From an uncultured Polyangiaceae bacterium (lineage in GTDB: Bacteria; Myxococcota_A; Polyangia; Polyangiales; Polyangiaceae), in contig CAYTJL010000046.1 of NCBI GenBank assembly GCA_964437785.1, positions 32,439 to 47,286 of the forward strand: a stretch of 14,848 nt of DNA, written 5' to 3'. The notes beneath the pieces were generated by a model, which saw only the letters and a list, made by a program, of their open reading frames with translations, did no database searches and was not told where the DNA came from. A program made the translations under genes and the position numbers. Of this stretch, positions 1 to 13,706 are shown one piece after another (the first letter of the stretch is position 1; each line of letters opens with the position of its first letter).

Positions 1-1259
1 CGATCGAGCCCAAGATCCTCCACCGCCTGGTGGAGGAGCTGCCCGCGCAACGGGTGATGAAGCTCTTCGAGGGTCTGCGCGTGAGCGCGCCCGAGAGCGG
101 CGTCCGCAAGGCGAACAACGCACGTACGCGCAAGCTCATCCTGCGGACCATCCTCGGCTCGCCGCGGCTCGAGCTGTGGTCGGTCAAGTACCGCGCCAAG
201 ATCGTCTCGGCCCTGCGCCACGCGTGGGGCGAGCGGAGGCTCGGTATCGTCCGGTCGATCCTGCAAAAGCCCGATGAGGCCCGCGACGCGAAGGAGCGCG
301 CGATCTTGCGCTCGCTCATCGACAAGCACGCTCCGCTCGACCGCGAGCGGGTGTACGAGTGCGTCGCGTTCATCCTCGGGATCCGCGAGCGCGTCACCCT
401 CCCTCTGCTCCTCGGCTTCCAGCTCGCCAAGGTCGATTTGACCGCCGGCCACAAGCTGCCTCCCGAGGTCTTGGAGGGTATCCGCGGCCGTTACCACAGC
501 GGCGTCGACAAGGCAGAGGTCCTCCGCCTCACCGCAGGATCGCTCACCAAGGCACAACGGCTCACCGTCCAGAAGAGGGCGGCCGAGGCGGGCGTCGTGG
601 TGGAGATGGACCCCTCGCACTACGACGCGGTCAAGCTCTATGTCTACGCCTTCGAGAACGGGCTCACCCCCGCCATCGAGGAGGCGCTCGACAAGCGGGC
701 TCGGCGCGCGGCGGCGGCCTTCCCGGCGCGTTTTTCGCGGATTGGCATCCTCGTCGACGCGTCTCGGTCCATGATGGGCGGCGGTGATCAAAAGCTCCGT
801 CCCATGGCCATCGCGCTCGCGCTCCGCGACATGCTCATGCACGTCGCAGACGCGCGCGTGGTCTACGCGGGTGGCGAGTCGGGCGCCGTCAACGGCAGCG
901 CGAGGCTCATGCGGCCGAGCGGGGACTCCTCGCTCTCCGAGGGGCTCTTGACGCTGCTCGGCGGCGACGCCGAGGCCATCTTCGTGATCAGCGATGGTTA
1001 CGAGAACCGCCCTCGCGGCCGCTTCGCGGAGACCCTCTCCGCGGCGCGGAGCATCGGTGTGAGCACGCCCGTCTACCACCTCTCTCCGGTCTTCGCGGCC
1101 GAGTCGGGCGGCGTGCGCGCGCTCGCCGAGGGCCTCGCGCCGACCCTCCCCGCGGTAAGCCCGGAGGCGCTCGGTATCTCGATGTTGCGCGGCCTCCTCG
1201 CGGCCGATCCCATTCGTGGGCTCGTGTCGCTGGTCCACGCCGCGCTCCCCCGTGTCTAA
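1..1259 (+). CDS. vWA-domain protein with MIDAS motif, 5' end probably outside the window
   Basis: The frame is open from nt 3 through the GTG at 30, so the gene likely starts upstream. The C-terminal half has GILVDASRSM (DxSxS MIDAS) and later IFVISDGYEN, typical of a von Willebrand A fold. The N-terminal part is helical and Arg/Leu-rich. A TROVE/Ro-like relationship is possible but cannot be shown by eye. Confidence 0.6.
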   Translation, partial: IEPKILHRLVEELPAQRVMKLFEGLRVSAPESGVRKANNARTRKLILRTILGSPRLELWSVKYRAKIVSALRHAWGERRLGIVRSILQKPDEARDAKERAILRSLIDKHAPLDRERVYECVAFILGIRERVTLPLLLGFQLAKVDLTAGHKLPPEVLEGIRGRYHSGVDKAEVLRLTAGSLTKAQRLTVQKRAAEAGVVVEMDPSHYDAVKLYVYAFENGLTPAIEEALDKRARRAAAAFPARFSRIGILVDASRSMMGGGDQKLRPMAIALALRDMLMHVADARVVYAGGESGAVNGSARLMRPSGDSSLSEGLLTLLGGDAEAIFVISDGYENRPRGRFAETLSAARSIGVSTPVYHLSPVFAAESGGVRALAEGLAPTLPAVSPEALGISMLRGLLAADPIRGLVSLVHAALPRV

Positions 1260-1273
1260 AGGAGGATCAAACC

Positions 1274-2227
1274 ATGTCTCTCACCGTTCATGAGATCCTT
1301 CGGGGCACCGGCGTTGGGCACGTGCAGAGCGCGGGCCTCATGCAGGTGATCCCGATCCTCGGCGAGGATGACGACACGTTTGCTCCCCCGGAGCTCACGG
1401 TCGGCACCTCGGGATATGGCACCGTCCTTCTGCGCAACGACAGTGACCGGCCCACCATCGTCCCCACGGCGGCGGGCTGGGTCGTGGCGCAGAGGGCACA
1501 GGACCACGCGATCGGCAGCGGCGTCTTCTTGAAGCCCAAGGAGAGCCGCGCCATCGACACCGCGATGTGCGTGCAGCAAGGCCAAGGCGGATACATCGCA
1601 GAGGACAAGCACGGGATGCTCATCCTGCCTGCCGCCCTCCGGCCCAAGGCGCTCAGCGTGCGGAACGAGAAGAGCTTCAACAAGCTCTGGGCCAGCATCA
1701 CCGAGCTCAACAAGAGCGTTGGTCTCACCGAGGCTGGACATCTCGAGTACTTCCTCAAGGGCTTCCAAAAGGAGCTCGATGAGTTCGTCGCCGAGTTCGA
1801 GATCGTGCCGAAGCAACGCGGCGCGATCATCCTCATCGGCGGCGAGATCGCGGGCGTCGAGATCGCCCCTTCGAGCGCCTATTGGGAGGTCGTGTGGACC
1901 CCGCTCATCCGGGTCTGCTACGGCTCTCTCGCGGCGAGCGCGCGCAAGCGCGGCCTCCAAAGGCCACAGACCCGCGCGCCGCTGCGGCTCGTCGATCGCT
2001 CGATTGACGGCATCCGCGACGCGCTCGTTCGCGCCGAAGAGGAGGAGGGTCGCTCGGTCATGCGCACGTTCGCTGCGCTGCACGGGCTGCCCTTCGAGGT
2101 CGCCGGGGCCCCCGACGACCGCATCAACGGCATCCTGCTCACCACGGTCGCGAACGCGCGGCTCAGCGGGCAAGTCGTGAGGACCGGCTTCAAGGTCCTC
2201 TACGCCTCGCTCTGCGCGGCCGCCTGA
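1274..2227 (+). CDS. conserved hypothetical protein, coupled to the vWA gene
   Basis: AGGAGG (1260-1265) lies 8 nt before ATG 1274 and directly after the TAA of the upstream gene. The codon bias is GC3-rich. Motifs GLMQVIPILGEDD, LLRNDSDRPTIVPTAAGWVV and AMCVQQGQGGY resemble, from memory only, an uncharacterised bacterial family labelled ARPP-1-like or DUF in databases. No catalytic motif was recognised. Confidence 0.6.
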   Translation: MSLTVHEILRGTGVGHVQSAGLMQVIPILGEDDDTFAPPELTVGTSGYGTVLLRNDSDRPTIVPTAAGWVVAQRAQDHAIGSGVFLKPKESRAIDTAMCVQQGQGGYIAEDKHGMLILPAALRPKALSVRNEKSFNKLWASITELNKSVGLTEAGHLEYFLKGFQKELDEFVAEFEIVPKQRGAIILIGGEIAGVEIAPSSAYWEVVWTPLIRVCYGSLAASARKRGLQRPQTRAPLRLVDRSIDGIRDALVRAEEEEGRSVMRTFAALHGLPFEVAGAPDDRINGILLTTVANARLSGQVVRTGFKVLYASLCAAA

Positions 2228-2247: not shown

Positions 2248-2275
2248 CTCCCTCTCCCGCTCACGGGAGAGGGGG
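2248..2275 (+). terminator. GC-rich hairpin after the two-gene operon (terminator-like, no U-tract)
   Basis: CCCTCTCCCG (2250-2259) pairs with CGGGAGAGGG (2264-2273) around the loop CTCA. Two further pairs are possible. The hairpin starts 21 nt after the stop codon at 2225-2227. Confidence 0.45.
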
Positions 2276-2287
2276 AGTCGGGATCTC

Positions 2288-2361
2288 GTCCCTATCGGCT
2301 ACCTTGGATAGGCTTTCGGAACCTCACTCCGAAGAAGCGGGTTCGACTCCCGCTGGGGACG
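2288..2361 (+). tRNA. tRNA-Glu(CUC), C33 variant
   Basis: Acceptor GTCCCTA/TGGGGAC with one G.U pair. D-stem GGCT/GGCT (two G.U) with a 10-nt GG-containing loop. Anticodon stem TCGGA/TCCGA, loop ACCTCAC, anticodon 2323-2325. T-arm GCGGG-TTCGACT-CCCGC. Discriminator G followed by CC. The ends (GTCCC...GGGGACGCC) resemble bacterial tRNA-Glu. Confidence 0.8.
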
Positions 2362-2411
2362 CCGTTACGCCGAGCTGCCGAGAGACCTCTCGCTCGCGGC
2401 AGCTCTCCTTT

Positions 2412-2481
2412 CTCTCTGTCTCAGCGGACTGAGCACCGGGCTACGAACTCGGTTGTCGAGGTTCAACTCCTCGCAGAGAGG
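2412..2481 (+). tRNA. tRNA-Arg(ACG) with minimal D-arm
   Basis: Perfect acceptor CTCTCTG/CAGAGAG. D-arm CTCAG-CGGA-CTGAG (2420-2433), a tetraloop. Anticodon stem CCGGG/CTCGG, loop CTACGAA, anticodon 2443-2445. T-arm CGAGG-TTCAACT-CCTCG. Length 70 nt. Confidence 0.7.
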
Positions 2482-2487
2482 CTATGT

Positions 2488-2558
2488 ATCCCCGTCCCGG
2501 CGGCCCCGGGCGCGAGCCTCCGAAGCTCGTTGTTCGGGTTCGACTCCCGGCGGGGGTG
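2488..2558 (+). tRNA. tRNA-Arg(CCG) with minimal D-arm
   Basis: Acceptor ATCCCCG/CGGGGGT with one G.U. D-arm CCCGG-CGGCC-CCGGG (2496-2510). Anticodon stem CGAGC/GCTCG, loop CTCCGAA, anticodon 2520-2522. T-arm TCGGG-TTCGACT-CCCGG. Discriminator G followed by CC. Length 71 nt. Confidence 0.7.
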
Positions 2559-2568
2559 CCGTGATTTT

Positions 2569-2649
2569 GGGGCGAGCGCCGGCGCGCAGGTTGGTCTGTA
2601 AAACCGACGTCTTTGGACATGTTGGGTTCAACTCCCAGGCGCCCCACCA
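2569..2649 (+). tRNA. tRNA-Tyr(GUA), class II variable arm, minimal D-arm, CCA encoded
   Basis: Acceptor GGGGCG(A)/(G)CGCCCC. D-arm GCGC-CGGC-GCGC (2576-2587). Anticodon stem TTGGT/ACCGA, loop CTGTAAA, anticodon 2598-2600. Long variable arm GTC-TTTG-GAC (2609-2618). T-arm TTGGG-TTCAACT-CCCAG. A73 followed by CCA (2647-2649). Confidence 0.7.
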
Positions 2650-2655
2650 ACGTTA

Positions 2656-2724
2656 TGCAGGAAGGGAAGGTCCCGGCGGAGGCTCATACCCTCGGCTCTG
2701 CAAGTTCGATTCTTGCTCCTGCTA
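2656..2724 (+). tRNA. tRNA with CAU anticodon (Met or Ile2 type), minimal D-arm, U1.U72 mismatch
   Basis: Acceptor (T)GCAGGA/TCCTGC(T). D-arm GGGA-AGG-TCCC (2664-2674). Anticodon stem (G)GAGG/CCTC(G), loop CTCATAC, anticodon 2685-2687. T-arm GCAAG-TTCGATT-CTTGC. A73 followed by CC. Length 69 nt. Confidence 0.6.
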
Positions 2725-2725
2725 C

Positions 2726-2794
2726 CGCGATGACTCATGGTGAGGGGCGGCTCTCATAAGGCCGGCCGCGAGGGTTCGAATCCCTCCATCGCGA
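2726..2794 (+). tRNA. tRNA with CAU anticodon (Met or Ile2 type), minimal D-arm
   Basis: Perfect acceptor CGCGATG/CATCGCG. D-arm CTCA-TGG-TGAG (2734-2744). Anticodon stem CGGCT/GGCCG, loop CTCATAA, anticodon 2755-2757. T-arm GAGGG-TTCGAAT-CCCTC. A73 followed by CC. It starts 1 nt after the discriminator of the previous tRNA. Confidence 0.7.
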
Positions 2795-2798
2795 CCCT

Positions 2799-2875
2799 CT
2801 GGGTGTGGCTCAATTTGGTAGAGCGCCGGCGTCGGGAGCCGGAAGTTGGGGGTTCGAATCCCTCCATCCAGACCA
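2799..2875 (+). tRNA. tRNA-Pro(CGG), canonical cloverleaf, CCA encoded
   Basis: Acceptor CTGGGTG/CATCCAG. D-arm GCTC-AATTTGGTA-GAGC. Anticodon stem CCGGC/GCCGG, loop GTCGGGA (U33, G37), anticodon 2833-2835. T-arm GGGGG-TTCGAAT-CCCTC. C1-G72 and A73 as in bacterial tRNA-Pro. CCA at 2873-2875. Confidence 0.9.
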
Positions 2876-2876
2876 C

Positions 2877-2949
2877 GCGGGATGAGCGAGCTGGCGAACG
2901 CAGCGGTCCCACACACCGCCTCCGCAGGGTTCGATCCCCTGATCCCGCA
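2877..2949 (+). tRNA. tRNA-Val(CAC), C33 variant
   Basis: Perfect acceptor GCGGGAT/ATCCCGC. 3-bp D-stem GCG/CGC with a GG-containing loop. Anticodon stem GCGGT/ACCGC, loop CCCACAC, anticodon 2910-2912. T-arm CAGGG-TTCGATC-CCCTG. A73 followed by CC. Confidence 0.8.
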
Positions 2950-2962
2950 CCGAAGAACCAAC

Positions 2963-3038
2963 GGGGTATGATGGCCTGGTTGACCTGAGCTCTCCGATAA
3001 AGAGCTCGCGCCGCGTTCGATCCGCGGATACCCCACCA
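2963..3038 (+). tRNA. tRNA-Ile(GAU), C33 variant, CCA encoded
   Basis: Perfect acceptor GGGGTAT/ATACCCC. Weak D-stem with a TGGTTG loop. Anticodon stem GCTCT/AGAGC (extendable to 7 bp), loop CCGATAA, anticodon 2996-2998. T-arm CCGCG-TTCGATC-CGCGG. A73 followed by CCA (3036-3038). Confidence 0.8.
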
Positions 3039-3045
3039 TCACGAT

Positions 3046-3118
3046 GCGGGGCTCGCTCTCTGGCGAGAGCACCGGCGCGACGAGCCGGCCGAGGTGGGTT
3101 CGATCCCCACGCCCCGCA
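3046..3118 (+). tRNA. tRNA-Val(GAC), C33 variant
   Basis: Perfect acceptor GCGGGGC/GCCCCGC. D-arm GCTC-TCTGGCGA-GAGC. Anticodon stem CCGGC/GCCGG, loop GCGACGA, anticodon 3079-3081. T-arm GTGGG-TTCGATC-CCCAC. A73 followed by CC. Confidence 0.8.
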
Positions 3119-3123
3119 CCCAT

Positions 3124-3200
3124 GTCCATGTGGCGAAACTGGCAACCGCAACGGTCTCAGAAACCGTGATTTGAGGGTTCGAATCCCTCCGTGGACACCA
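3124..3200 (+). tRNA. tRNA-Leu(CAG) with short (5-nt) variable region, CCA encoded
   Basis: Acceptor GTCCATG/CGTGGAC with one G.U. Leu-type D-arm GCG-AAACTGGCAAC-CGC. Anticodon stem ACGGT/ACCGT, loop CTCAGAA, anticodon 3158-3160. Variable region GATTT only. T-arm GAGGG-TTCGAAT-CCCTC. A73 followed by CCA. Confidence 0.8.
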
Positions 3201-3223
3201 ACGCATCCATCATCGTCTCTCGC

Positions 3224-3298
3224 GTCCGTGTGGCGAAATTGGCAAACGCAGCGGCCTCAAACCCCGCCAATATGAGGGTTCGACTCCCTCCATGGACA
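3224..3298 (+). tRNA. tRNA-Leu(CAA) with short variable region
   Basis: Close paralog of the previous gene. Acceptor GTCCGTG/CATGGAC with one G.U. D-arm GCG-AAATTGGCAAA-CGC. Anticodon stem GCGG(C)/(C)CCGC with a C.C at 31:39, loop CTCAAAC, anticodon 3258-3260. 6-nt variable region. T-arm GAGGG-TTCGACT-CCCTC. A73 followed by CC. Confidence 0.75.
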
Positions 3299-3311
3299 CC
3301 CGCAATTTTAC

Positions 3312-3396
3312 GTCACCGTGGCGGAATTTGGCATACGCGACGGCCTGAGAAGCCGTGCCCGAAATGGGTATGTGGGTTCGACCCCCACCGGTGACA
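3312..3396 (+). tRNA. tRNA-Leu(GAG), canonical class II with long variable arm
   Basis: Perfect acceptor GTCACCG/CGGTGAC. D-arm GCG-GAATTTGGCATA-CGC. Anticodon stem ACGGC/GCCGT, loop CTGAGAA, anticodon 3347-3349. 15-nt variable arm CCC-GAAAT-GGG. T-arm GTGGG-TTCGACC-CCCAC. A73 followed by CC. Length 85 nt. Confidence 0.88.
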
Positions 3397-3471
3397 CCGC
3401 GCGAAGCAGCGCCCTTTGGAGAAAAACAAGCCATGAAAAAGAAGAGGTAGAGGTCAATAAACCTCGAGGAG

Positions 3472-3999
3472 ATGGAGAGTATGAGCGCGCAGACATTGCT
3501 CCTGACACCGTGGATGATGCCCCACAAGGTCATCTCCTGGCAGACCGCCGTCACCATGACATTTTTGGGGAAGGTCGAGGTCATCGCCGAATACGACGAG
3601 GCCATCTGCTCCCCCAGCACCAGCATCCGCACGCCGTCCGTCGTCCGGCTCAAGAGGCCGCTCGGCGACATGAAGCGTGGAGTCAAGTTCTCCCGCGTCA
3701 ACGTCTTCGTGCGCGACGGGTTCCGGTGCCAATACTGCGGTGACAAAAAGCGTGTCTCCGAGCTCAACTACGACCACGTCGTGCCCCGCGTGCAAGGCGG
3801 AAGGACCATCTGGGAGAACATCGTGACCTCCTGCTACGGCTGCAACTCTCGCAAGAGGGGCCGCACCCCGGAGCAGGCAGGAATGATGCTCCTCCGCAAG
3901 CCGGTCAAGCCGAAGTGGCTCCCGATGACCCCCGTCCTCCCACGGCACGGCAACGTGCCGGACGCGTGGGCCTCCTACTGCGCGGGCATGCTCCAGTGA
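3472..3999 (+). CDS. HNH endonuclease (small stand-alone HNH/McrA-like family)
   Basis: CQYCG...LNYDHVVPRVQGG...WENIVTSCYGCNSRK is a classic CxxC-H-N-CxxC HNH zinc-finger nuclease motif. The alternative start ATG 3481 has better spacing to GAGGAG at 3466-3471. The gene sits inside the tRNA array on the same strand. Confidence 0.88.
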   Translation: MESMSAQTLLLTPWMMPHKVISWQTAVTMTFLGKVEVIAEYDEAICSPSTSIRTPSVVRLKRPLGDMKRGVKFSRVNVFVRDGFRCQYCGDKKRVSELNYDHVVPRVQGGRTIWENIVTSCYGCNSRKRGRTPEQAGMMLLRKPVKPKWLPMTPVLPRHGNVPDAWASYCAGMLQ

Positions 4000-4015
4000 C
4001 CCGCGGCTCAAAAGC

Positions 4016-4053
4016 ACCTCGCTCGCCCCTCCCCAACGAGGGGCGAGCGGGGT
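4016..4053 (+). terminator. strong GC hairpin downstream of the HNH gene (terminator or processing structure)
   Basis: CGCTCGCCCCTC (4020-4031) pairs perfectly with GAGGGGCGAGCG (4038-4049) around the loop CCCAAC. The stem is extendable to about 16 bp. A T5 run lies at 4068-4072, 18 nt further on and not adjacent. Confidence 0.5.
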
Positions 4054-4072
4054 CGCCTCTCAACATCTTTTT

Positions 4073-4160
4073 AGAAGGTGAACCGGCCGGGGCGCCGGGC
4101 CTGTCTGGAACACAGCGCGAACGGCGATGACCGTTTGAGGATCGAGACCTCCGCCTTCTG
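4073..4160 (+). tRNA. tRNA-Ser(GGA), 8/4 (Sec/allo-tRNA-like) architecture
   Basis: 8-bp acceptor AGAAGGTG/CGCCTTCT with one G.U. Linker AA. 5-bp D-stem CCGGC/GCCGG with a 6-nt loop. Anticodon stem CTGT/ACAG, loop CTGGAAC, anticodon 4107-4109. Variable arm AACGG-CGATGA-CCGTT. 4-bp T-stem GAGG/CCTC with loop ATCGAGA. G73 followed by CC. Confidence 0.75.
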
Positions 4161-4205
4161 CCCGTCCTTACGAATGGGACCCCATCGTGAATCAGCGTCG
4201 GAATT

Positions 4206-4292
4206 GGAAGCGTGAATCGGCCGGGGCGCCGAGCCCGCCTTGAAAGCGGTGCGCACCCTTCGGGGTGTGGGGATCGAGACCTCCACCTTCCA
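4206..4292 (+). tRNA. tRNA-Ser(UGA), 8/4-like architecture
   Basis: Acceptor GGAAG(C)GTG/CACCTTCC, 8 bp plus one bulged C. D-stem TCGGC/GCCGA. Anticodon stem CCGC/GCGG, loop CTTGAAA, anticodon 4241-4243. Variable arm CACCC-TTCG-GGGTG. T-stem GGGG/CCTC with loop ATCGAGA. A73 followed by CC. Confidence 0.72.
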
Positions 4293-4316
4293 CCCCTCGT
4301 TTTTTACTGAACCTTT

Positions 4317-4404
4317 GGAAGCGTGAATCGGCCGGGGAGCCGAGCCTGCCTCGAAAGCAGTGCGCACCCCTTCGGGGTGTGGGGATCGAGACCTCCACCT
4401 TCCG
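4317..4404 (+). tRNA. tRNA-Ser(CGA), 8/4-like architecture
   Basis: Near-duplicate of the 4206-4292 gene. Same acceptor with a bulged C. D-stem TCGGC/GCCGA. Anticodon stem CTGC/GCAG, loop CTCGAAA, anticodon 4352-4354. Variable arm with a TTCG-type loop. T-stem GGGG/CCTC with loop ATCGAGA. G73 followed by CC. Confidence 0.72.
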
Positions 4405-4409
4405 CCTCT

Positions 4410-4494
4410 GGAAGCTGAATCGGCGGCGGCGCCGAGCCCGGCTGCTAACCGGTGTGTGCCTCATCGGCATGGTGTTCGACTCACCCTGCTTCCG
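4410..4494 (+). tRNA. tRNA-Ser(GCU), 8/4 architecture with 6-bp D-stem and tetraloop
   Basis: Acceptor GGAAGCTG/CTGCTTCC, 8 positions with one T.T. D-arm TCGGCG-GCGG-CGCCGA. Anticodon stem CCGG/CCGG, loop CTGCTAA, anticodon 4444-4446. Variable arm TGCC-TCATC-GGCA. 4-bp T-stem GGTG/CACC with canonical loop TTCGACT. G73 followed by CC. Confidence 0.75.
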
Positions 4495-4499
4495 CCTCT

Positions 4500-4574
4500 G
4501 CGGGGCTCGTTCAACGGGCAGGACAGTAGGCTTTGACCCTATCAATCGCGGTTCGAATCCGCGGCCCCGTGCCA
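4500..4574 (+). tRNA. tRNA-Gln(UUG), canonical cloverleaf, CCA encoded
   Basis: Acceptor GCGGGGC/GCCCCGT with G1.U72. D-arm GTTC-AACGGGCA-GGAC. Anticodon stem GTAGG/CCTAT, loop CTTTGAC, anticodon 4533-4535. T-arm CGCGG-TTCGAAT-CCGCG. G73 followed by CCA. A weak 1:72 pair plus G73 fits bacterial tRNA-Gln. Confidence 0.85.
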
Positions 4575-4732
4575 TCACCCGACCGCGACCGCGACACGGC
4601 TGCCATGCCCGCTCGCGCGCCGCCCGCATAATCAGCCCCAAAACCAGGCCCCAAACGCGCGGCACGAGATATGGAAAGCGTTAGGATGGATGGTAGGATG
4701 ACTTGATTCTTCCGCTTCCTCTTCGCCGCACC

Positions 4733-5632
4733 ATGAAGCCCTCGCCCCGACTCTCCCCTTCGATCCTCATCATCGCCGCGATCACCTTCGCCGCCGTAGG
4801 CTGCGGGAGTTTCCGGATCGTCGCGAACGAAGACAACCCCGATGTCAAAGGGATGCCGGGCGGGACCTCGTCAGGCGTCGGATCGAGCGGCAGCTCCTCG
4901 GGCCAAGGCGGCGCGTCGAGCGGCGGATCAGGGGGCGGATCGGGCGGCAACATCCCCATCGATCAACAAGAGGACCTGCTCCCGATCGACGGGAGCTACA
5001 GCTACCTCTGCGGCGCGCCCACGGACATGTGCGTCCCGGGCCCCGATGACTCGTGCGCGCTCGGCGGCGATCCCCAAATGGGCGCCCCAGACAGCAGCGT
5101 CGTCGGATGCCAGCTCGTCCCCTCCGGCAACGACGTCCACGCGGTGTGCGCAGCGACAGGCACGTTCGGCGTCGAGCAACCGTGCACGACCTCCGCGGAC
5201 TGCCAACCCGGCCTCGGGTGCGTCGAGACCGCCGCCCTCGGCAAGTGCAGGCCCTATTGCTGCGGCGATCTCGAAGCGTGCGCCGCGGACAGCTATTGCG
5301 CGCCCGCCAAGATGAACGGCGAGAGCATCCCGATCCCCACGTGCACGCCCGTGATCCCGTGCGAGCTCTTGAACGACGTGACGTGCCCGACCGGCCTCAC
5401 GTGCGCCATCGTCCGCACCTCGGGCCTCACGAGCTGCGTCAAGCCGGGCGACGGGTACGACGATCAGGCGTGCCCGTGCGCGGCCGGCTACTACTGCCGC
5501 CCCGCGACGAGCACGTGCGTCAAGCTCTGCCACACGGGCCCGGGCTCGGACGACTGCGGCCCGACCGCGGTCTGCCAAGGCGGCGTGAACGGCATGTACC
5601 CGAACGGCTTCGGCACCTGCGTCCCGTACTGA
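4733..5632 (+). CDS. secreted cysteine-rich lipoprotein
   Basis: From ATG 4733 the sequence is MKPSPRLSPSILIIAAITFAAVGC: a positive N-region, a hydrophobic core and a lipobox AVG-C. It is followed by a Gly/Ser linker and a domain of about 200 aa with about 30 Cys. The TTG at 4703 in the ORF track is less likely to be the start. Confidence 0.7.
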   Translation: MKPSPRLSPSILIIAAITFAAVGCGSFRIVANEDNPDVKGMPGGTSSGVGSSGSSSGQGGASSGGSGGGSGGNIPIDQQEDLLPIDGSYSYLCGAPTDMCVPGPDDSCALGGDPQMGAPDSSVVGCQLVPSGNDVHAVCAATGTFGVEQPCTTSADCQPGLGCVETAALGKCRPYCCGDLEACAADSYCAPAKMNGESIPIPTCTPVIPCELLNDVTCPTGLTCAIVRTSGLTSCVKPGDGYDDQACPCAAGYYCRPATSTCVKLCHTGPGSDDCGPTAVCQGGVNGMYPNGFGTCVPY

Positions 5633-5651
5633 AATCAGCGCAAAAACAAGC

Positions 5652-6587
5652 TCAGAACGAGCCCACCGCGAAGGCGCCGACCGACGTCGCGGTCCACGCG
5701 GGCATCACGATCACGCTCGCGGACGCGGGCTTCTTGGTCGCGCGCGCGAGGAGCACCGCGCCCGTCACCACGCCCGCGATCCCGAGGCCGCCGAGCACCG
5801 CGCCGCTCGCGCGGAGCGCGTTGATCGACGTCACCTCGCTCGTCACGTGATCGCGCTGATCCGCCGGGCACGAAGGCCGGGTCGGGCCCCCGCACAGATC
5901 ATCGAGCTTGCCGCCTTTGACGTACGAGAGCGCGAGCAACGTCGCGCCCGTGATGAGCGCCGCGCCCGACACCCCCGTGATCACCGCGCCCGGCACCACG
6001 AGCTGCGCGCCGCTCCCCGCCCCGCCCGCCGCGGGCGCGAGCGCGAGCGCGAGGCTGCGTTTGTCCTTCTCTTCGAGCGTGAACGGGAGGTCCTGCGGCG
6101 CGAGCCCAGGCGCCTCCGCGTGCAGCGTGTGCGCCCCCGGATCGAGCGGGATGCCCGCGTTGAGCCACACCTGCTTGCCGTCGATGGTGATCGTCAACCC
6201 AGGCCGCTCGTCGCCCTTCACCGTGACGATCGGGATGCGCGGCGAGAGCCCGGCGATGAGCTCCTCGGCGACCTTCGCGACCTCTTTTTGCGACGACGCG
6301 TTGGCCCGCGCGAGGCCGCGCTCGTACGACGCCTTCGCCGCCACGAGCTTGCCGAGCTTCTCGTGCGCAGCGCCCGCGCGGAGATGGAGCTGCGGCGTCT
6401 CCTTGATGGCGAGCGCGGCCTCGAACTTGGCGAGCGCCGTCGCGTAGTCCCCCTTCTTCTCGGCGTCCTCGCCCTCTTTGAACGCCTGCTTCGCGGCCGC
6501 GATCTCGTTGGGGGTCTGCGCGGTCGCAACGCTGCTCGATACGACGATCGCGAGCGCCGCCGCGCACAGGAACGTGGTGCGCTGCAT
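5652..6587 (-). CDS. exported TPR-like / membrane-anchored protein
   Basis: N-terminal signal peptide MQRTTFLCAAALAIVVSSSVATA-Q. One or two TPR-like helical pairs (KKGDYATALAKFEAAL, LVAAKASYERGL). Gly/Ala-rich hydrophobic segments near the C-terminus. Divergent from the kinase gene. Confidence 0.6.
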   Translation of the reverse strand: MQRTTFLCAAALAIVVSSSVATAQTPNEIAAAKQAFKEGEDAEKKGDYATALAKFEAALAIKETPQLHLRAGAAHEKLGKLVAAKASYERGLARANASSQKEVAKVAEELIAGLSPRIPIVTVKGDERPGLTITIDGKQVWLNAGIPLDPGAHTLHAEAPGLAPQDLPFTLEEKDKRSLALALAPAAGGAGSGAQLVVPGAVITGVSGAALITGATLLALSYVKGGKLDDLCGGPTRPSCPADQRDHVTSEVTSINALRASGAVLGGLGIAGVVTGAVLLARATKKPASASVIVMPAWTATSVGAFAVGSF

Positions 6588-6678
6588 TAGGGGCCGAGGA
6601 TGATAGCGGATCTCGGGGCGCGCTTCGCCAGGTTGCTTGACCCGAGCAGGGGCGAGCCTTCACGATGGACCGGCCCTG

Positions 6679-8856
6679 ATGAAATCCGGCGAGGTCATTG
6701 CTGGCAAATACCGGCTCGACAAGAGGCTCGGTGTCGGGGGCATGGGCGAGGTCTGGCGCGCCGCGCACACCGGCACGGAGCGGGCCTACGCCATCAAGTT
6801 CTTGCACGCGCACGCCGCCGAGTCCGCGAGCGCGCGGCACCGCTTCACGCGGGAAGCAAAGGCCTCGGCGAAGATCAACCACGCGAACATCATCGACATC
6901 TTCGACGTCGGCGAGCTCCCCGAGGGCACCCTCTACCTCGCGATGGAGCTGCTCGAAGGCGTGTCGCTCGCGGACGCGTTCCACGCCTCACCGCCGCTCA
7001 GCGTTCAAGATTTGCTCGTCGCCATGCGCGACACCGCCGAGGGGCTCGCCGCCGCGCACGCGGTCGGCATCGTCCACCGCGACGTCAAGCCGGCGAACAT
7101 CTTCCTCCACAAAGACCGCGCGACGGGCTTCGTCGCCGTCAAGCTGCTCGACTTCGGGATCAGTAAATTCGGCGACGAGACGGGCTCCACCAAGGCGGGC
7201 TCGGTGCTCGGCTCGCCCCGGTACATGAGCCCCGAGCAGACACGCCACGCCTCCAAGGTCGACGCGCGCACCGATCTCTGGGCCGCGGGCGTGATCTTGT
7301 TCGAAGGCCTCACGGGCACCTTCCCGCACGAGGGCGACAGCTTCAGCTCGCTCGTGGTCGCGATCATCACGCAGGAGCCCATCTCGATCGATCAGCTCGC
7401 GCCGGGGTTGCCCGAGCCCGTCCGCGCGATCGTGCGCGACCTCATAAAGCCGATCGACGAGCGCATCCAGACCGCGACCGAGCTCGTCGCGCGCATCAAC
7501 CAAGCGCTCACCGATCCAGCGATCGCGCGCATCCCGCTCCCTCGCCCGCTGCACCCGCCCGCGGGCGAGAGCGTGCGCACCGCGACCGGCCTCCGCATGA
7601 GGCCGCTCGGCGATCCGGGCAGCACAGGCGCGATCCGCGTCTCGCAGCCGCTCGTCGATCCAGGGAGCACAGGCGCGATCCGCGCCGCGCAACCCGGCCT
7701 GCCCGCGCCGAGCGCGACGCAAAACAGCGCTCCTCAGCCCGCGTCACGCATGTCATCGCCGGGCTTCAACGCCGCGTCCGCCGACCAGCCGCGCGCGCCC
7801 ACCTTCGGCGCTCCGCCCGCCGCGCCTACGTTCGGCGCGCCTCCGGCCGCTCCGTCGTTCGGCGCACCACCGCAACCCGGCGCGCCGATCAACCCCTACG
7901 GCGCCACGCACAAAGTCCAGAACCCGGTCGAGCTGCTCCGCGAAGCGCAGGCGATCGCCTCAAAATCAAGCCAAGCGGCGCCATCTCCGCCGCCGCCCGC
8001 GCAGGCTTCGCAGACCGAGCGGCCCGCGGCCCCGGCGATCGAATCACCGCCCGCGCCGCCGCCTCCGCCGCCGCGGCCGCCGTCCTCGTCGCTCCCCGAC
8101 GAGGCGACCGCGATCGTCGCCGACCCGAGGATGCAAGGCGATTCGCGCGCGTCCATCCCCACCGACATGCGCGCGTCGAGCGTGGGCTTCGGCGCTCCCT
8201 CGGCGACCGGATCGTTCCGCGCGACGAACAAGACGCTGCCGATCAGCGCGACCGCGCACCTCCAAGCCGAGCTCGCCAAGGCGCGCGAGGAGTTCGAACG
8301 ACAACAGTTCACCAGCGCGCCGACGACGCCGGCCTTCGATCCGCGCATCTCGCAGTCGGCCGCGCGCGTGTCCATGCCCGACCCGCTCGTCGGGACGGCG
8401 TCGGCGATGAGCCTTCCTTCGCCCACGGATCCCCGCGCGCAGGCCCCGAACGCGGTGGCGCCGATGGGCGCGCCGGCCGCGATCCCGCCTCACGACGCCG
8501 CGCCTCCGGGCACGGGATCGGCGCTCAAGATCGCGGCCCTCGTGCTCTCCGTCGTGCTCATCGGGATCGTGATCGCGATCATCGCGACGCTCCGATCGTC
8601 GAGCGGCGACGAGCGCGCGCCCGCGGCGTCCGCGTCGGCCACGCCCGTGTCGAGCGCGCCCGCGCCCGCTCCGTCGCCGACCGAGAGCGCTCCGCCCGCG
8701 CCGACGGCGAAGGCCGAAGAGCCCTCGCCGGCCGCGAGCGCGAACGCGCCCGCGCCGTCCGGGACCTCGACCTCCGCGCCCACCAAGACCAAGGCCGAGA
8801 AGGGCAAGGCGGGCTCTCCGTCGTCCAAGGTAAAGAAGCTCGGTTCGGGGTTGTGA
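6679..8856 (+). CDS. Hanks-type Ser/Thr protein kinase with Pro-rich linker and one TM helix
   Basis: G-loop LGVGGMGEVW, YAIKFL, catalytic loop HRDVKPANIF, DFGISK, GSPRYMSPEQ. These are followed by about 350 aa of Pro/Ala/Ser-rich sequence, the TM helix ALKIAALVLSVVLIGIVIAIIATL and a PAS-rich tail. ATG 6679 is preferred over TTG 6637. Confidence 0.9.
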   Translation: MKSGEVIAGKYRLDKRLGVGGMGEVWRAAHTGTERAYAIKFLHAHAAESASARHRFTREAKASAKINHANIIDIFDVGELPEGTLYLAMELLEGVSLADAFHASPPLSVQDLLVAMRDTAEGLAAAHAVGIVHRDVKPANIFLHKDRATGFVAVKLLDFGISKFGDETGSTKAGSVLGSPRYMSPEQTRHASKVDARTDLWAAGVILFEGLTGTFPHEGDSFSSLVVAIITQEPISIDQLAPGLPEPVRAIVRDLIKPIDERIQTATELVARINQALTDPAIARIPLPRPLHPPAGESVRTATGLRMRPLGDPGSTGAIRVSQPLVDPGSTGAIRAAQPGLPAPSATQNSAPQPASRMSSPGFNAASADQPRAPTFGAPPAAPTFGAPPAAPSFGAPPQPGAPINPYGATHKVQNPVELLREAQAIASKSSQAAPSPPPPAQASQTERPAAPAIESPPAPPPPPPRPPSSSLPDEATAIVADPRMQGDSRASIPTDMRASSVGFGAPSATGSFRATNKTLPISATAHLQAELAKAREEFERQQFTSAPTTPAFDPRISQSAARVSMPDPLVGTASAMSLPSPTDPRAQAPNAVAPMGAPAAIPPHDAAPPGTGSALKIAALVLSVVLIGIVIAIIATLRSSSGDERAPAASASATPVSSAPAPAPSPTESAPPAPTAKAEEPSPAASANAPAPSGTSTSAPTKTKAEKGKAGSPSSKVKKLGSGL
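7603..7684 (+). repeat. 45-nt tandem coding repeat (two copies) inside the kinase linker
   Basis: CCGCTCGGCGATCCGGGCAGCACAGGCGCGATCCGCG (7603-7639) versus CCGCTCGTCGATCCAGGGAGCACAGGCGCGATCCGCG (7648-7684). They encode PLGDPGSTGAIR and PLVDPGSTGAIR. Confidence 0.85.
7795..7872 (+). repeat. three roughly 24-nt tandem coding repeats (APTFGAPPA) inside the kinase linker
   Basis: The translation reads APTFGAPPA-APTFGAPPA-APSFGAPP. The DNA copies have diverged at synonymous positions. Confidence 0.8.
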
Positions 8857-8886
8857 CGGCCATGCGCCGCTGGTAGGCCCGCGGCC

Positions 8887-9669
8887 ATGACTGCCTTCGA
8901 GCTCATCTCCGTCGAGCGATCGGGCGCGATCGCGACGGTCACCGTGCAGCGCCCCGACAAGCTCAACGCCCTCAACAGCCGCGTGATCGCGGAGCTCTCG
9001 CGCGCGTTCGGCGACCTCGTCGCGAGCGGCGACGTCCGCGCCGCGATCCTCACCGGCGCGGGCCGCGCGTTCGTCGCGGGCGCCGACATCGCCGAGATGG
9101 CCGAGCTCCCGACGGCCGAGGCCAAGCGCTTCTCGGACGCGGGGCACGCGCTCTGCGCGCTCATCGAGTCCGCGCCGTTCCCCGTGATCGCCGCGGTCAA
9201 CGGCTTCGCGCTCGGCGGCGGCTGCGAGATCGCGCTCGCGTGCGACTTCATCTACGCCGCCGACAACGCGAAGCTCGGGCAGCCCGAGGTGAGCCTCGGC
9301 GTCATCCCCGGCTTCGGCGGCACGCAGCGGCTCCTTCGACGGGTGGGCGCGGCGCGCGCGCGCGAGCTCATCTACACGGGCGACACGATCACCGCCGATC
9401 AAGCCCTCGCGATGGGCCTCGTCAACGCGGTGCTCCCCGCCGCCGAGCTGCTCGATCGCGTCCGCGCGGTCGCCGAGAAGATCGCGCAGAAGGGCCCGAT
9501 CGCGATCGCGTACGGCAAGCGCGTGATGCTCCGCGGCGAGCCGCTCGACATGCCCGCCGCGTGCGAGCTCGAAGCGCAGGCGTTCGCGTCGCTCTTCGGG
9601 ACCGAGGATCAACGCGAGGGGATGCGCGCGTTCCTCAGCAAGAATAAGCCTGCTTTCAAGGGCAAATGA
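8887..9669 (+). CDS. enoyl-CoA hydratase/isomerase (crotonase family)
   Basis: LTGAGRAFVAGADIAEM, AAVNGFALGGGCEIALACDF, QPEVSLGVIPGFGGTQRL and EGMRAFLSKNKPAF form the typical crotonase-fold signature, at the typical length of 260 aa. Confidence 0.9.
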   Translation: MTAFELISVERSGAIATVTVQRPDKLNALNSRVIAELSRAFGDLVASGDVRAAILTGAGRAFVAGADIAEMAELPTAEAKRFSDAGHALCALIESAPFPVIAAVNGFALGGGCEIALACDFIYAADNAKLGQPEVSLGVIPGFGGTQRLLRRVGAARARELIYTGDTITADQALAMGLVNAVLPAAELLDRVRAVAEKIAQKGPIAIAYGKRVMLRGEPLDMPAACELEAQAFASLFGTEDQREGMRAFLSKNKPAFKGK

Positions 9670-9672
9670 GGA

Positions 9673-10912
<1,240 letters not shown>

Positions 10913-10923
<11 letters not shown>

Positions 10924-12991: not shown

Positions 12992-13061
12992 GAGGTCAGC
13001 TTATCCGGTGACGGGCGCCGCAGATAGATCGAGCGCCCGCGCTCGTGTACTCTCGGCGCGC

Positions 13062-13706
13062 GTGGAGAACGAGCTCGAACAGTCTATCGGCGTCTTCGGC
13101 GAAGAGATGCTGCTTTGGATGTGCGTGCTGCGGCAATCGCCCCGCAGGCCGCCCGCGGATCACGTCATGCGCCAGGCGAACCTCCTGCTCGACGAGCTGA
13201 AGGCATCGAAGCTCGCGCAGGAGCTGCCGGTGCAGTCGGTCGACGACGGCATGTTCGCGATCGCGGCGCTGCTCGACGAGTGGGCGATGGCCCTGCCCGA
13301 TCTGCGCCCGCACTGGGCGAACTACCCGCTGCAAGCGACGCGCTGGCTCACCAACAACGCGGGCGTCGAGGTCTTTCAGCGGCTCGAGCGCGTGCGCGGC
13401 GGCCCGAAGACGATCCTCGCCACGTACATGGTGATCTTGGGCATGGGGTTCCAAGGCAAGTTCGCGCTGCCGGGCGTCGACAAGTACCACTTGGTCCAAG
13501 CGCGCAAGGACCTCGGCCTCCAGCTCGGCCTCGATCCCGATCGCGATTGGAAGGCCGGCGTGCTGCGCGCGGTGCGCATCGACCCCGAGGCCGCGCCCAA
13601 GGAGCCCTTCCACAAAACGGTCTTGTTCGGCCGGATTTTGGCGATTTTCTGTGCGGTCTCGGCGGTGATCACCTTGGCCATCATCCTTTACTCGAACCTC
13701 GCATGA
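13062..13706 (+). CDS. DotU/TssL-family protein (type VI/IVB secretion membrane anchor-like)
   Basis: FAIAALLDEWAMAL...W, GVEVFQRLERVR, ILATYMVILGMGFQGKF and a single C-terminal TM helix (ILAIFCAVSAVITLAIILY) match the DotU/TssL pattern. The start is GTG 13062 or ATG 13107. The upstream part of track ORF 12465-13706 is antisense to the REC gene and not coding. Confidence 0.7.
   Translation: MENELEQSIGVFGEEMLLWMCVLRQSPRRPPADHVMRQANLLLDELKASKLAQELPVQSVDDGMFAIAALLDEWAMALPDLRPHWANYPLQATRWLTNNAGVEVFQRLERVRGGPKTILATYMVILGMGFQGKFALPGVDKYHLVQARKDLGLQLGLDPDRDWKAGVLRAVRIDPEAAPKEPFHKTVLFGRILAIFCAVSAVITLAIILYSNLA

Follow-up and report, generated by a model that had tools for sequence, protein, structure and literature searches.

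Long arrays of transfer RNA (tRNA) genes, known as L-arrays, are linked in cyanobacteria to an HNH endonuclease and to RNA-repair genes such as rtcB, with which they are co-induced, and an array of this kind aids survival under translational stress (PMC8421152). Their function has been examined in essentially one organism, Anabaena. In phages, tRNA arrays have been proposed to escape anticodon nucleases through changes in the anticodon loop (PMC10264068), and mycobacteriophage genomes contain genes for Ro60 and Y RNAs (PMC4201824, PMC12135203). In addition, Mukai et al. 2017 (PMC5389517) describe tRNAs with an 8/4 branch from phages, proteobacteria and irregular tRNA polycistrons. Here we analyze a DNA stretch of 14,848 nucleotides (nt) from an uncultured Polyangiaceae bacterium (assembly GCA_964437785.1, contig CAYTJL010000046.1; hereafter the window), which holds 18 tRNA genes on the + strand between positions 2288 and 4574 with an HNH gene among them. 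Our reading, to which we give a probability of roughly 0.65, is that these genes are the right-hand part of a supernumerary L-array, a conserved chromosomal island of the Polyangiales that is related to phage tRNA clusters. Our literature search found tRNA arrays never joined with Sorangium, Myxococcota or Polyangia, and an L-array in this phylum has apparently not been described so far.

Results

Eighteen tRNA genes in the window

The original prediction had named 18 same-strand tRNA genes, and ARAGORN recovered every one of them, with the same positions and anticodons, once its thresholds were relaxed. The default setting returned 12 of the 18, the -ps setting added Tyr-GUA (2568-2648) and the first of two CAU genes (CAU#1, 2656-2726), and -ps80 added the four Ser genes. 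Since -ps80 gives about one false match per kb in the GC-rich coding DNA around the array, the Ser genes required independent support. A covariance model of 8/4 tRNA-Ser (R1), seeded with 8/4 tRNA-Ser from other loci and with two of the four window genes themselves, matched all four at E ~1e-14. The Rfam tRNA model RF00005 reached its gathering score for 8 of the 18, best for Pro-CGG (62 bits) and Leu-CAG (61 bits), while 7 of the 18 had no match to any Rfam model even at E = 10, which agrees with the expectation that few of these tRNAs are canonical. Sub-threshold matches to the Rfam tRNA-Sec model were found for Ser-GCU, Val-GAC and Tyr-GUA. The features of the island within the window are as follows, with lengths in amino acids (aa) or base pairs (bp); for tRNAs, the percentage is that of stem pairs kept in orthologues of other genera.

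3..1259, + strand: putative divergent Ro60-like protein, C-terminal 418 of 530 aa, open at the left edge; helical repeats and a vWA domain with a DASRS MIDAS motif
1274..2227, + strand: ARPP-1 domain protein, 317 aa; PF20208, E 1.8e-29, 103.5 bits against a cutoff of 27
2249..2276, + strand: GC-rich hairpin CCCTCTCCCG-CTCA-CGGGAGAGGG in the gap between ARPP-1 and the first tRNA, read from the sequence; it has no T run and hence is not called a terminator
2288..2363, + strand: tRNA-Glu(CUC), C33; ARAGORN default; RF00005 38.8 bits; 16 orthologues, 99.4%
2412..2482, + strand: tRNA-Arg(ACG), small D loop, 6-bp anticodon stem; ARAGORN default; RF00005 35.6 bits; 16 orthologues, 94.6%
2488..2560, + strand: tRNA-Arg(CCG); ARAGORN default; no RF00005 match; 16 orthologues, 96.9%, 17 compensated pairs
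2568..2648, + strand: tRNA-Tyr(GUA), long variable arm, irregular T arm; ARAGORN -ps; tRNA-Sec 32.8 bits (sub-threshold)
2656..2726, + strand: tRNA(CAU) #1, 1:72 mismatch (initiator-like); ARAGORN -ps; no Rfam match; 7 orthologues, 94.3%
2726..2796, + strand: tRNA(CAU) #2; ARAGORN default; RF00005 32.7 bits; 16 orthologues, 93.7%
2799..2875, + strand: tRNA-Pro(CGG), canonical, with C1-G72, A73, G37 and encoded CCA; RF00005 62.1 bits; 29 orthologues, 99.7%
2877..2951, + strand: tRNA-Val(CAC), C33, G8; ARAGORN default; no Rfam match; 5 orthologues, 100%
2963..3038, + strand: tRNA-Ile(GAU), 6-bp anticodon stem, C33; ARAGORN default; no Rfam match
3045..3122, + strand: tRNA-Val(GAC), C33; ARAGORN default; tRNA-Sec 34.9 bits; 10 orthologues, 98.6%
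3124..3200, + strand: class-I tRNA with Leu anticodon CAG, Leu-type D arm, A73; RF00005 60.9 bits; 20 orthologues, 98.8%
3224..3300, + strand: class-I tRNA with Leu anticodon CAA; RF00005 51.9 bits; 13 orthologues, 100%
3312..3398, + strand: class-II tRNA-Leu(GAG); RF00005 52.7 bits
3418..3450, + strand: Shine-Dalgarno (SD) motif GGAG (3418-3421) and a mini open reading frame (mini-ORF), ATG AAA AAG AAG AGG TAG (3433-3450), encoding M-K-K-K-R
3481..3999, + strand: HNH endonuclease, 172 aa; PF14279 2.6e-14, PF01844 5.4e-14; in-frame ATG at 3472 as an alternative start
4020..4061, + strand: strong GC hairpin with a T run 3' of the HNH gene, terminator-like, from the terminator scan
4073..4162, + strand: (8/4) tRNA-Ser(GGA), 8-bp acceptor, 4-bp T stem, 5-bp D stem, long variable arm, G73, T loop AUCGAGA; R1 84.6 bits
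4206..4294, + strand: (8/4) tRNA-Ser(UGA), bulged C (or two mismatches) in the acceptor stem, A73; R1 79.0 bits
4317..4406, + strand: (8/4) tRNA-Ser(CGA), acceptor irregularity as in Ser-UGA, G73; R1 82.7 bits
4410..4496, + strand: (8/4) tRNA-Ser(GCU), U-U at acceptor pair 7, G73, canonical T loop; R1 80.6 bits, tRNA-Sec 35.3 bits
4500..4574, + strand: tRNA-Gln(UUG), canonical, CCA encoded; RF00005 52.6 bits

The HNH gene thus interrupts the array as predicted, with matches to two HNH families. Spacers within the blocks are also short as claimed, although the ranges given (1-23 nt before the HNH gene and 5-45 nt after it) needed correction to 0-23 nt, with a single 48-nt spacer between Glu and Arg-ACG, and to 3-44 nt. 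A 9-bp inverted repeat (GAGCUGCCG...CGGCAGCUC, 2372-2405) fills the 48-nt spacer. The shared strand and the 0-48 nt spacers within blocks agree with the definition of L-arrays, which asks for a common orientation and for distances short enough to allow co-transcription (Santamaria-Gomez et al. 2021). Over 2.29 kb, HNH gene included, the 18 tRNA genes amount to a density of 7.9 per kb, where Tran et al. 2016 ask for at least 2 per kb.

Three kinds of computed match were set aside. ARAGORN's eighth acceptor pair in Val-GAC is probably a chance U:A, since the orthologues are 7/5. A sub-threshold Rfam YrlA match at 2747-2845 joins the T arm of CAU#2 to the D arm of Pro-CGG and is the dimeric-tRNA artefact known from Chen et al. 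2014 (PMC4201824). The ARAGORN calls of a "tmRNA" in one related contig (L004) and of "Gly-GCC" at L017:16682 are false positives.

The window shows part of a larger island that recurs across the Polyangiales

Two metagenome Logan contigs, L004 and L005, match the window at 96-97% identity along 5-7 kb, and L004 continues upstream of the vWA gene with at least 11 further tRNAs; the window therefore shows part of a larger island. At least 29 tRNAs are supported in the L004 island, of which 22 are found by default ARAGORN and the others are Tyr, CAU#1, four Ser and Thr. A still larger island lies in the metagenome-assembled genome (MAG) of a Minicystis sp. (L092), where 13 tRNAs, a Ro60 gene (TROVE + vWA_Ro60), 16 tRNAs, genes for a 534-aa protein and ARPP-1, another 16 tRNAs, the HNH gene, four Ser, Thr and Gln follow one another. 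Default ARAGORN counts 48 tRNAs in L092, and the Ser model raises this to at least 51 by adding three more 8/4 Ser genes. A tRNA array unit in the sense of Tran et al. 2016 has at least 20 tRNA genes, a number exceeded by L004 (at least 29) and L092 (at least 51); the window alone holds 18.

To map the distribution, we scanned one genome per species with the HNH alignment, which gave 80 loci. Around the HNH gene, default ARAGORN detects between 23 and 35 tRNAs in Byssovorax, Polyangium, Labilithrix and many Polyangiaceae and Myxococcota MAGs. Their recurrent order begins with Lys Lys Gln Asn Thr Glu Phe Pro His and protein genes, continues with Trp Asp Ala Gly Cys Arg Glu Arg Met Met Pro Val Ile Val Leu Leu Leu, and ends with HNH and then Ser... 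Gln; four Ser isoacceptors keep their position 3' of the HNH gene in more than 30 loci. The array has shrunk to 6-13 genes in Sorangium and to 2 in several Polyangiaceae MAGs. Within Polyangiales, taxonomy is mirrored in the array, in its gene order and in the identity of the HNH protein, and the closest named relatives of the window are Minicystis, Byssovorax and Sorangium, which fits the genome's first description as myxobacterium-like. Since the gene order is common across Polyangiales, the array architecture is old and inherited.

The GC fraction is 0.60-0.65 in the array and 0.68-0.75 in the flanks, and the flanking proteins (kinase, enoyl-CoA hydratase and others) have no orthologous neighbours at the arrays of other genera. 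Distant HNH homologues in Thermodesulfobacteriota and Nitrospirae had no tRNA array at their locus. In five distant Myxococcota (L043, L045, L046, L047 and L050), a lone canonical tRNA-Arg(CCU) lies about 175 nt upstream of the HNH match, again with no array. Because the distant HNH follows this lone tRNA, the linkage of HNH and tRNA may predate the array, or a tRNA gene may be the target.

The tRNA genes are maintained by selection

We measured divergence per site between the window and its 96%-identical relatives and found 0.213 differences in spacers, 0.039 in tRNA loops, 0.036 in the HNH gene and 0.013 in tRNA stems, with 0 of 54 anticodon positions changed. Since spacer differences are about 16-fold more frequent than stem differences, the tRNA genes are maintained and not decaying, in line with the original prediction that the stems stay well paired. 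For 17 of the 18 window tRNAs, orthologues with the same anticodon in other genera have 92-100% of the stem pairs preserved, percentages that are inflated because the orthologues were collected by ARAGORN, which favours cloverleaf pairing. This bias leaves unaffected both the contrast between spacers and stems and the compensated changes, of which each of the 17 tRNAs has 7-18 pairs. Together, these findings show that the structures of the array tRNAs are under strong purifying and compensatory selection.

The same prediction had ascribed the block-wise oddities of these tRNAs to local duplication and diversification, and here the data point the other way. Of the 18 window tRNAs, 15 are closest to an orthologue from a different genus (0.76-0.93 identity, compared to 0.63-0.75 with window neighbours), so the oddities were inherited and did not arise by recent local duplication; the order-wide gene order likewise speaks against it. 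The look of recent paralogues is limited to Ser-UGA/Ser-CGA (0.93) and Leu-CAG/Leu-CAA (0.82), and the former two differ by a compensated anticodon-stem pair, C-G to U-A.

Array tRNAs keep identity marks and depart from the canonical shape

We surveyed identity elements in 43 loci with 858 well-supported array tRNAs. Each isoacceptor has the discriminator base expected under bacterial identity rules (A73 in Ala, Pro and Leu; G73 in Asn, Asp and Trp; U73 in Cys and Gly; C73 in His), G37 is present in 80 of 80 tRNA-Pro, and G-1 is encoded in 30 of 38 tRNA-His. With these marks retained, the array tRNAs look like chargeable tRNAs. Many of them also violate rules that hold almost universally elsewhere. 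C33 replaces U33 in 83 of the 858, with clusters in Val-GAC (10/13), Pro-GGG (13/23), Pro-UGG, Gly-GCC, Glu-CUC and Val-CAC; position 8 is not U in about 30%, position 55 of the T loop is G in about 12%, and CCA is encoded in about one quarter. C33, a position 8 other than U, and G55 are not known to occur in bacterial tRNAs of the housekeeping kind. The C33 carriers of the window are Glu-CUC, Val-CAC, Ile-GAU and Val-GAC. That of Val-GAC is kept across genera, and that of Ile-GAU is a recent change, since the 96%-identical L004 has U33.

The four Ser genes of the window have the (8/4) tRNA-Ser/allo-tRNA architecture. We aligned 32 array tRNA-Ser from more than 20 loci, and in this set, the seeds of which were picked by ARAGORN's own 8/4 call, pair 8-85 is formed in 32 of 32 (21 GC, 11 AU) and the canonical alternative, a fifth T-stem pair, in 0 of 32. 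The D stem has 5 bp that are 100% paired, with covariation in all five and 15 double changes in the fifth, and 92.5% of cells in the variable-arm helix are paired. With the R1 model, more than 30 loci gave about 80 strong matches, every one on the strand of the array. G73, a discriminator for seryl-tRNA synthetase (SerRS), is found in three of the four window genes, with A73 in Ser-UGA, and the four anticodons are GGA, UGA, CGA and GCU.

Leu-CAG and Leu-CAA, on the other hand, are class-I tRNAs of 77 nt that retain A73 and the D arm GUGGCGAAAYUGGCAA. The class-I form is taken by 12 of 16 array Leu genes with CAA, 19 of 26 with CAG and 13 of 16 with UAG; array Leu-GAG is class II in 30 of 30, and the non-array tRNA-Leu(CAA) of related Myxococcota is of normal class II. 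Two unusual anticodons were also seen. Well-formed tRNAs with the ochre anticodon UUA lie in two related arrays (L023:3451-3523 and L036:8318-8390), and tRNA-Ile(UAU), which is rare in bacteria, occurs at L008:9323, at L092:13750 and in a Mycobacterium intracellulare plasmid array.

Phages and plasmids carry related modules

With the HNH protein as a tblastn query, we found genes 30-50% identical to it in plasmids and large phages. The plasmids belong to Mycobacterium and Mycolicibacterium and, by tblastn match alone, to the cyanobacteria Nostoc, Tolypothrix and Acaryochloris; the phages are Virus Rctr197k, Myxococcus phage Mx1, Rhizobium RHph, S-TIM5-like cyanophages, PA5oct-like jumbo phages and Gordonia phages. 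In Mx1 one class-I Leu tRNA stands on each side of the HNH gene, and genes for a TROVE protein and a peptidyl-tRNA hydrolase are close by. In Rctr197k HNH follows an array of 11 tRNAs whose last members are Leu genes, and in the M. intracellulare plasmid the HNH homologue (39.7% identity) splits a 26-tRNA array; class-I tRNAs with Leu anticodons stand beside the HNH homologue in all three. In a Rhizobium phage a vWA protein precedes HNH. A scan of viral_contigs with the HNH alignment gave 22 pattern matches, of which 0 were confirmed; the phage relatives named above are GenBank phages. Since the HNH family, its contexts and the description of cyanobacterial L-arrays agree, the window array can be assigned by gene content to the L-array kind. 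The suggestion that it belongs among dense accessory arrays was well placed; the known class in question is that of long accessory tRNA arrays with links to HNH endonucleases and phages.

A polybasic mini-ORF precedes a strongly conserved HNH gene

Homologues of the HNH protein begin at ATG 3481, which is the likely start, and share the invariant pattern CxxC...DHxxP...N...CxxCN in their alignment. Thousands of them are 65-80% identical, and all those with an organism name are from Polyangiales (Sorangium, Chondromyces, Polyangium). The protein is 99% identical to that of L004 while the nucleotides differ by 3.6%, so that the changes are almost all synonymous. The HNH gene is under strong purifying selection. 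Its fixed position in the array and its strong conservation point neither toward homing nor away from it. A look-up of the exact HNH sequence of the window gave no record, and the nearest matches are Logan contigs at 96% identity.

The mini-ORF ends 30 nt 5' of the HNH start. A polybasic mini-ORF with an SD motif lies 20-100 nt 5' of the HNH start in 29 of 87 loci, and these are nearly all the loci whose HNH is at least about 62% identical. Its codons vary while the Lys/Arg composition is kept: the peptides are MKRKRR in Sorangium, MKKKR in Polyangium, MKKRRR in Minicystis and KKRKRR in Labilithrix, and Byssovorax has one as well. As background, polybasic mini-ORFs occur in 0.17% of 135-nt windows, and when an SD motif is demanded, about 10 other instances are left in all loci. 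The mini-ORF might act by translational coupling or by stalling at rare Lys/Arg codons, which is a testable idea. We also looked for an attenuator-type RNA structure in the HNH leader. With z-scores of -1.0 to +1.7, the leader is not unusually structured, and a classical attenuator hairpin is unlikely.

Ro60-like and ARPP-1 genes are embedded in the array

The first gene of the window had been described as part of a vWA operon. It does encode a MIDAS protein, with DASRS (DxSxS MIDAS) and VISDG motifs, but the protein is a Pfam orphan with a Ro60-like predicted fold, and its partner is an ARPP-1 gene. A full-length copy (530 aa) lies at L004:1898-3490. The 530-aa protein showed no similarity to the array Ro60 proteins by BLASTP or to the Protein Data Bank (PDB) by phmmer. 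Its AlphaFold2 model has a pLDDT of 87 and a pTM of 0.82, and the top seven Foldseek matches in the PDB are all Ro60 (E 6.8e-6 to 2.5e-3, TM 0.34-0.49). By hhalign, it matches the array Ro60 proteins with 77% probability (E 2e-5), in the vWA/MIDAS region only.

ARPP proteins are predicted to be enzymes acting on ribose or ADP-ribose moieties in conflict systems (PMC9503650). In 3 of 3 further contexts, ARPP-1 comes after a Ro60-like protein and a tRNA array encloses the two (L092:10001-12571, L093:10001-12595 and L094:10001-12547; window 3-2227). This neighbourhood of Ro60-like protein, ARPP-1 and tRNA array is absent from the ARPP neighbourhoods listed in PMC9503650. One of the contexts, L093, is a phage-like ENA contig of 168 kb (k141_2200410) that has the pair within a 19-tRNA cluster, along with many small ORFs, lysozyme, endonuclease V and RtcB.

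At the equivalent position, other arrays carry true Ro60, weakly matching Ro60-like or SPFH proteins. The SPFH/Band 7 proteins that stand there instead of Ro60 are at L055:7632-9389, L040:3786-5132, L066:11456-12952 and L044:3829-5007. In relatives with a true TROVE + vWA_Ro60 gene, a tRNA-like RNA follows it. This 124-nt gene lies just 3' of Ro60 at L092:7392-7515 and L001:4564-4687, and it was also seen in all Sorangium loci, in L021 and in part of L008. It has normal acceptor, D and T arms, with an irregular hairpin of about 60 nt in place of the anticodon arm, and is a candidate Y-RNA-like partner of Ro60. Rfam YrlA gave a sub-threshold match, and no other, beside the 124-nt gene.

PADLOC assigned the locus to no defence system. 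It returned generic HNH-domain matches only (best PtuB, 1.7e-7) and no match for the Ro60-like protein, ARPP-1, Ro60 or neighbouring ORFs.

The right flank

From 4703 to 14848 the window holds ordinary chromosomal genes and no integrase.

4703-5632: orphan ORF, conserved only in L004 and L005
5652-6587, - strand: weakly TPR-like ORF, below the Pfam cut-off
6637-8856: Ser/Thr kinase
8887-9669: enoyl-CoA hydratase
9673-12991, - strand: two histidine kinases
12465-13706: type VI secretion gene, DotU
To the end of the window: type VI secretion gene, TssM/IcmF

At 2.4 kb downstream of its HNH gene, a Sorangium array has a gene that fuses Ribosomal_S30AE (ribosome hibernation) with a cold-shock domain (L001:8909-9484, - strand).

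Discussion

The full island consists of a tRNA block, Ro60, a tRNA block, the Ro60-like vWA protein with ARPP-1, a further tRNA block, the mini-ORF with HNH, and a last tRNA block. On our analysis, its tRNAs probably form a near-complete second set of 30 to 50 genes, a backup translation kit and not the main supply. These tRNAs keep the marks by which synthetases recognize them, and many leave the canonical shape (8/4 Ser, short-armed Leu, C33, non-U8 and odd T loops). The blocks probably yield polycistronic transcripts that RNase P and RNase Z process, and since most array genes lack an encoded CCA, it would be added after processing. With housekeeping tRNAs damaged or translation impaired, the set could then act as a reserve or as a pool that toxins do not affect. 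We consider a spare pool of tRNAs that partly resist toxins the most likely role because of the Anabaena data and the proposal that phage tRNAs escape anticodon nucleases (PMC10264068). The Ro60-family and ARPP proteins may handle damaged or misfolded tRNA-like RNAs, in surveillance or repair, and HNH may, as a homing-type nuclease, maintain the island within the population. Through the Lys/Arg-rich mini-ORF, expression of HNH may be linked to the supply of Lys- and Arg-tRNAs.

A bolder version of this is tentative, and we rather doubt it. The locus would be a phage-derived "tRNA immunity island", kept since before the Polyangiales genera diverged, with a second tRNA set that is complete, diverges in structure and escapes toxins directed at tRNA, with two Ro60-family proteins, ARPP and a candidate Y RNA that would survey or repair tRNAs, and with a Lys/Arg leader peptide that senses the loss of Lys- and Arg-tRNAs and switches the island on. 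Lys- and Arg-tRNAs are the classical targets of anticodon nucleases.

Several observations weigh against a supernumerary L-array. Full arrays cover all 20 amino acids, and for this reason the array could in principle be the main tRNA set. Its inheritance across the order looks stable and vertical, like that of a core feature, with a conserved gene order that follows taxonomy, unlike the sporadic, horizontal spread of known L-arrays. Individual parts are also less secure. Tyr-GUA is the weakest supported of the 18, with one orthologue in another genus that keeps 83% of pairs, although the gene is present in L004; the acceptor stems of Ser-UGA and Ser-CGA are imperfect, and the pairing percentages are inflated as noted above. 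A scan for sigma-70 promoters and terminators gave nothing above chance and no promoter, with the hairpin after HNH alone notable and the count of terminator-like sites in the window no higher than the shuffled expectation. As for the cargo, the 530-aa protein matches no Pfam family at E up to 1, TROVE included, and from its low TM scores and the 77% hhalign match we call it Ro60-like with moderate confidence.

The coverage of all 20 amino acids and the order-wide conservation along taxonomic lines would suit a housekeeping operon, in which the array is the main or only source of its tRNAs and the odd shapes are the norm of the lineage, and strong purifying selection would suit it too. We nevertheless find this improbable. 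Array content differs greatly among relatives, down to 6-13 genes in Sorangium and 2 in several Polyangiaceae MAGs, which favours an accessory role, as do the lower GC of the array and the sharing of its module with phages and plasmids. Minicystis rosea has 88 tRNAs in total (PMC8436480), about 40 more than an array of L092 size, and this leaves room for a separate normal set. The non-array tRNAs of related Myxococcota are canonical, whereas 7 of the 18 window tRNAs escape RF00005, the array's C33, non-U8 and G55 are not known to be features of housekeeping tRNAs in bacteria, and the module of HNH and class-I Leu tRNAs is also found in phages. That last connection could instead mean that the island is selfish cargo, a domesticated or parasitic remnant of a large phage that HNH homing keeps in place with little benefit to host translation. 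HNH/tRNA modules in Mx1, Rctr197k and the 168-kb phage-like contig with RtcB fit such an origin, as do the lower GC of the array and the non-syntenic flanking genes. On the other hand, neither the window nor L092 has an integrase or other phage genes, the HNH gene itself is under strong purifying selection, and a homing nuclease alone would not keep compensatory stem evolution and identity elements going; we judge selfish cargo unlikely.

If the tRNAs are selected, they might still work outside translation, as decoys or sponges for tRNA nucleases or as Y-RNA-like ligands or regulators of Ro60-family proteins. The embedded Ro60 and Ro60-like genes and the 124-nt tRNA-like RNA after Ro60 in relatives invite this idea; bacterial Y RNAs resemble tRNA (PMC4201824), a sponge role has been proposed for the Anabaena array (PMC8421152), and Mukai et al. 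report irregular polycistronic tRNAs that are charged yet unused in translation (PMC5389517). A generic decoy would have no need of unchanged anticodons (0/54 positions) or of the anticodon, discriminator, G-1 and G37 kept for each isoacceptor, and the set is nearly complete and non-redundant, as a decoding set would be, so mimicry has little probability in our view. Deliberate recoding is very improbable. Under it, class-I Leu-anticodon or UUA members would carry another amino acid and bring about regulated mistranslation or read-through, for which one may cite the two related arrays with ochre-anticodon tRNAs and the 8/4 or 9/3 allo-tRNAs through which Leu codons, among others, wrongly receive Ser or Ala (PMC5389517). 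Yet the class-I Leu tRNAs retain the Leu-type D arm and A73, the 8/4 Ser tRNAs bear Ser anticodons, and discriminators fit anticodons throughout. A supernumerary L-array thus remains our preferred reading.

Such an array matters in several ways. The same gene order across many genera amounts to a lineage-wide natural experiment with abundant covariation data, in which non-canonical tRNA shapes (8/4 Ser, class-I Leu, C33) are upheld by selection in bacteria. Chromosomal arrays and phage tRNA clusters are tied directly by a shared HNH family, class-I Leu tRNAs and a Ro60-type gene. For Ro60-like and ARPP-1 genes inside tRNA arrays we found no prior description, and they point to an unstudied chemistry of tRNA surveillance or repair, while the conserved polybasic mini-ORF is a testable candidate sensor of tRNA supply. 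Since Sorangium is now genetically tractable (PMC12391302), the ideas of backup tRNAs and nuclease escape can be addressed in a bacterial host and not in a phage.

Comparison with known systems

The 8/4 Ser genes resemble the (8/4) tRNA-Ser and allo-tRNAs of Mukai et al. 2017 (PMC5389517) in their 12-bp 8/4 branch, long variable arm, extended D stem and Ser anticodons, in mostly having G73 or U73, and in being matched by the tRNA-Sec model. They differ in that the window array has no missense anticodons and no toxin-antitoxin neighbours. The main text of Mukai et al. does not name myxobacteria (PMC5389517). The relatives' TROVE + vWA_Ro60 gene followed by a tRNA-like RNA recalls bacterial Ro60 (Rsr)-Y RNA modules (PMC4201824) and phiLo Ro60 (PMC12135203). 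Unlike in Rsr modules, the window protein fails the Pfam TROVE model and has ARPP-1 as its partner, as always in the contexts examined; unlike YrlA, the candidate partner RNA has its ends in an acceptor stem and an elongated anticodon arm.

Phage clusters share with the window an HNH gene of the same family directly after a class-I Leu-anticodon tRNA and, in Mx1, a nearby TROVE gene. They are smaller and mixed with phage genes, and the stretches examined hold no 8/4 Ser. Another homing endonuclease, SegB of phage T4, is a GIY-YIG-type enzyme, and since it is of that type its likeness to HNH is functional and not by homology. It is carried by the T4 tRNA cluster (cited in PMC8421152). Among the tRNA arrays of Mycobacterium plasmids, Mycobacterium chromosomes and cluster C1 mycobacteriophages (PMC5966550; PMC10264068; PMC4201824), a plasmid array likewise has HNH inside, together with a class-I Leu-anticodon tRNA and tRNA-Ile(UAU). 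The mycobacterial arrays belong to another phylum, their Ser-GCU is a normal 7/5 tRNA, they lack the polybasic mini-ORF, and they reside on mobile replicons, whereas the Polyangiales array is chromosomal and without mobility genes.

A further close match is the trn operon of Anabaena PCC 7120 (PMC8421152; PMC4758250), with dozens of close same-strand tRNAs that add to the normal set, as those of the Polyangiales array probably do, a linked HNH gene, RNA-repair or processing genes nearby, many atypical members and a proposed role in translational stress. For a possible likeness of the HNH protein to Anabaena all8564 there are tblastn matches to Nostoc plasmids. On the other hand, the host here is from the Myxococcota, which are absent from both surveys of L-arrays (PMC8421152; PMC4758250), and L092 has at least 51 genes, compared to "up to 43" in the surveyed L-arrays. 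In contrast to PCC 7120, HNH lies inside the array behind a polybasic mini-ORF, and the cargo is Ro60, Ro60-like and ARPP proteins in place of RtcB and DpsA. Altogether, the L-array described here is new in its reach across an order, its very large size and its relation to phages, in tRNAs that are non-canonical yet under selection, and in having cargo of the Ro60 family and a leader mini-ORF that is conserved; its role we infer to be that of a second tRNA supply.

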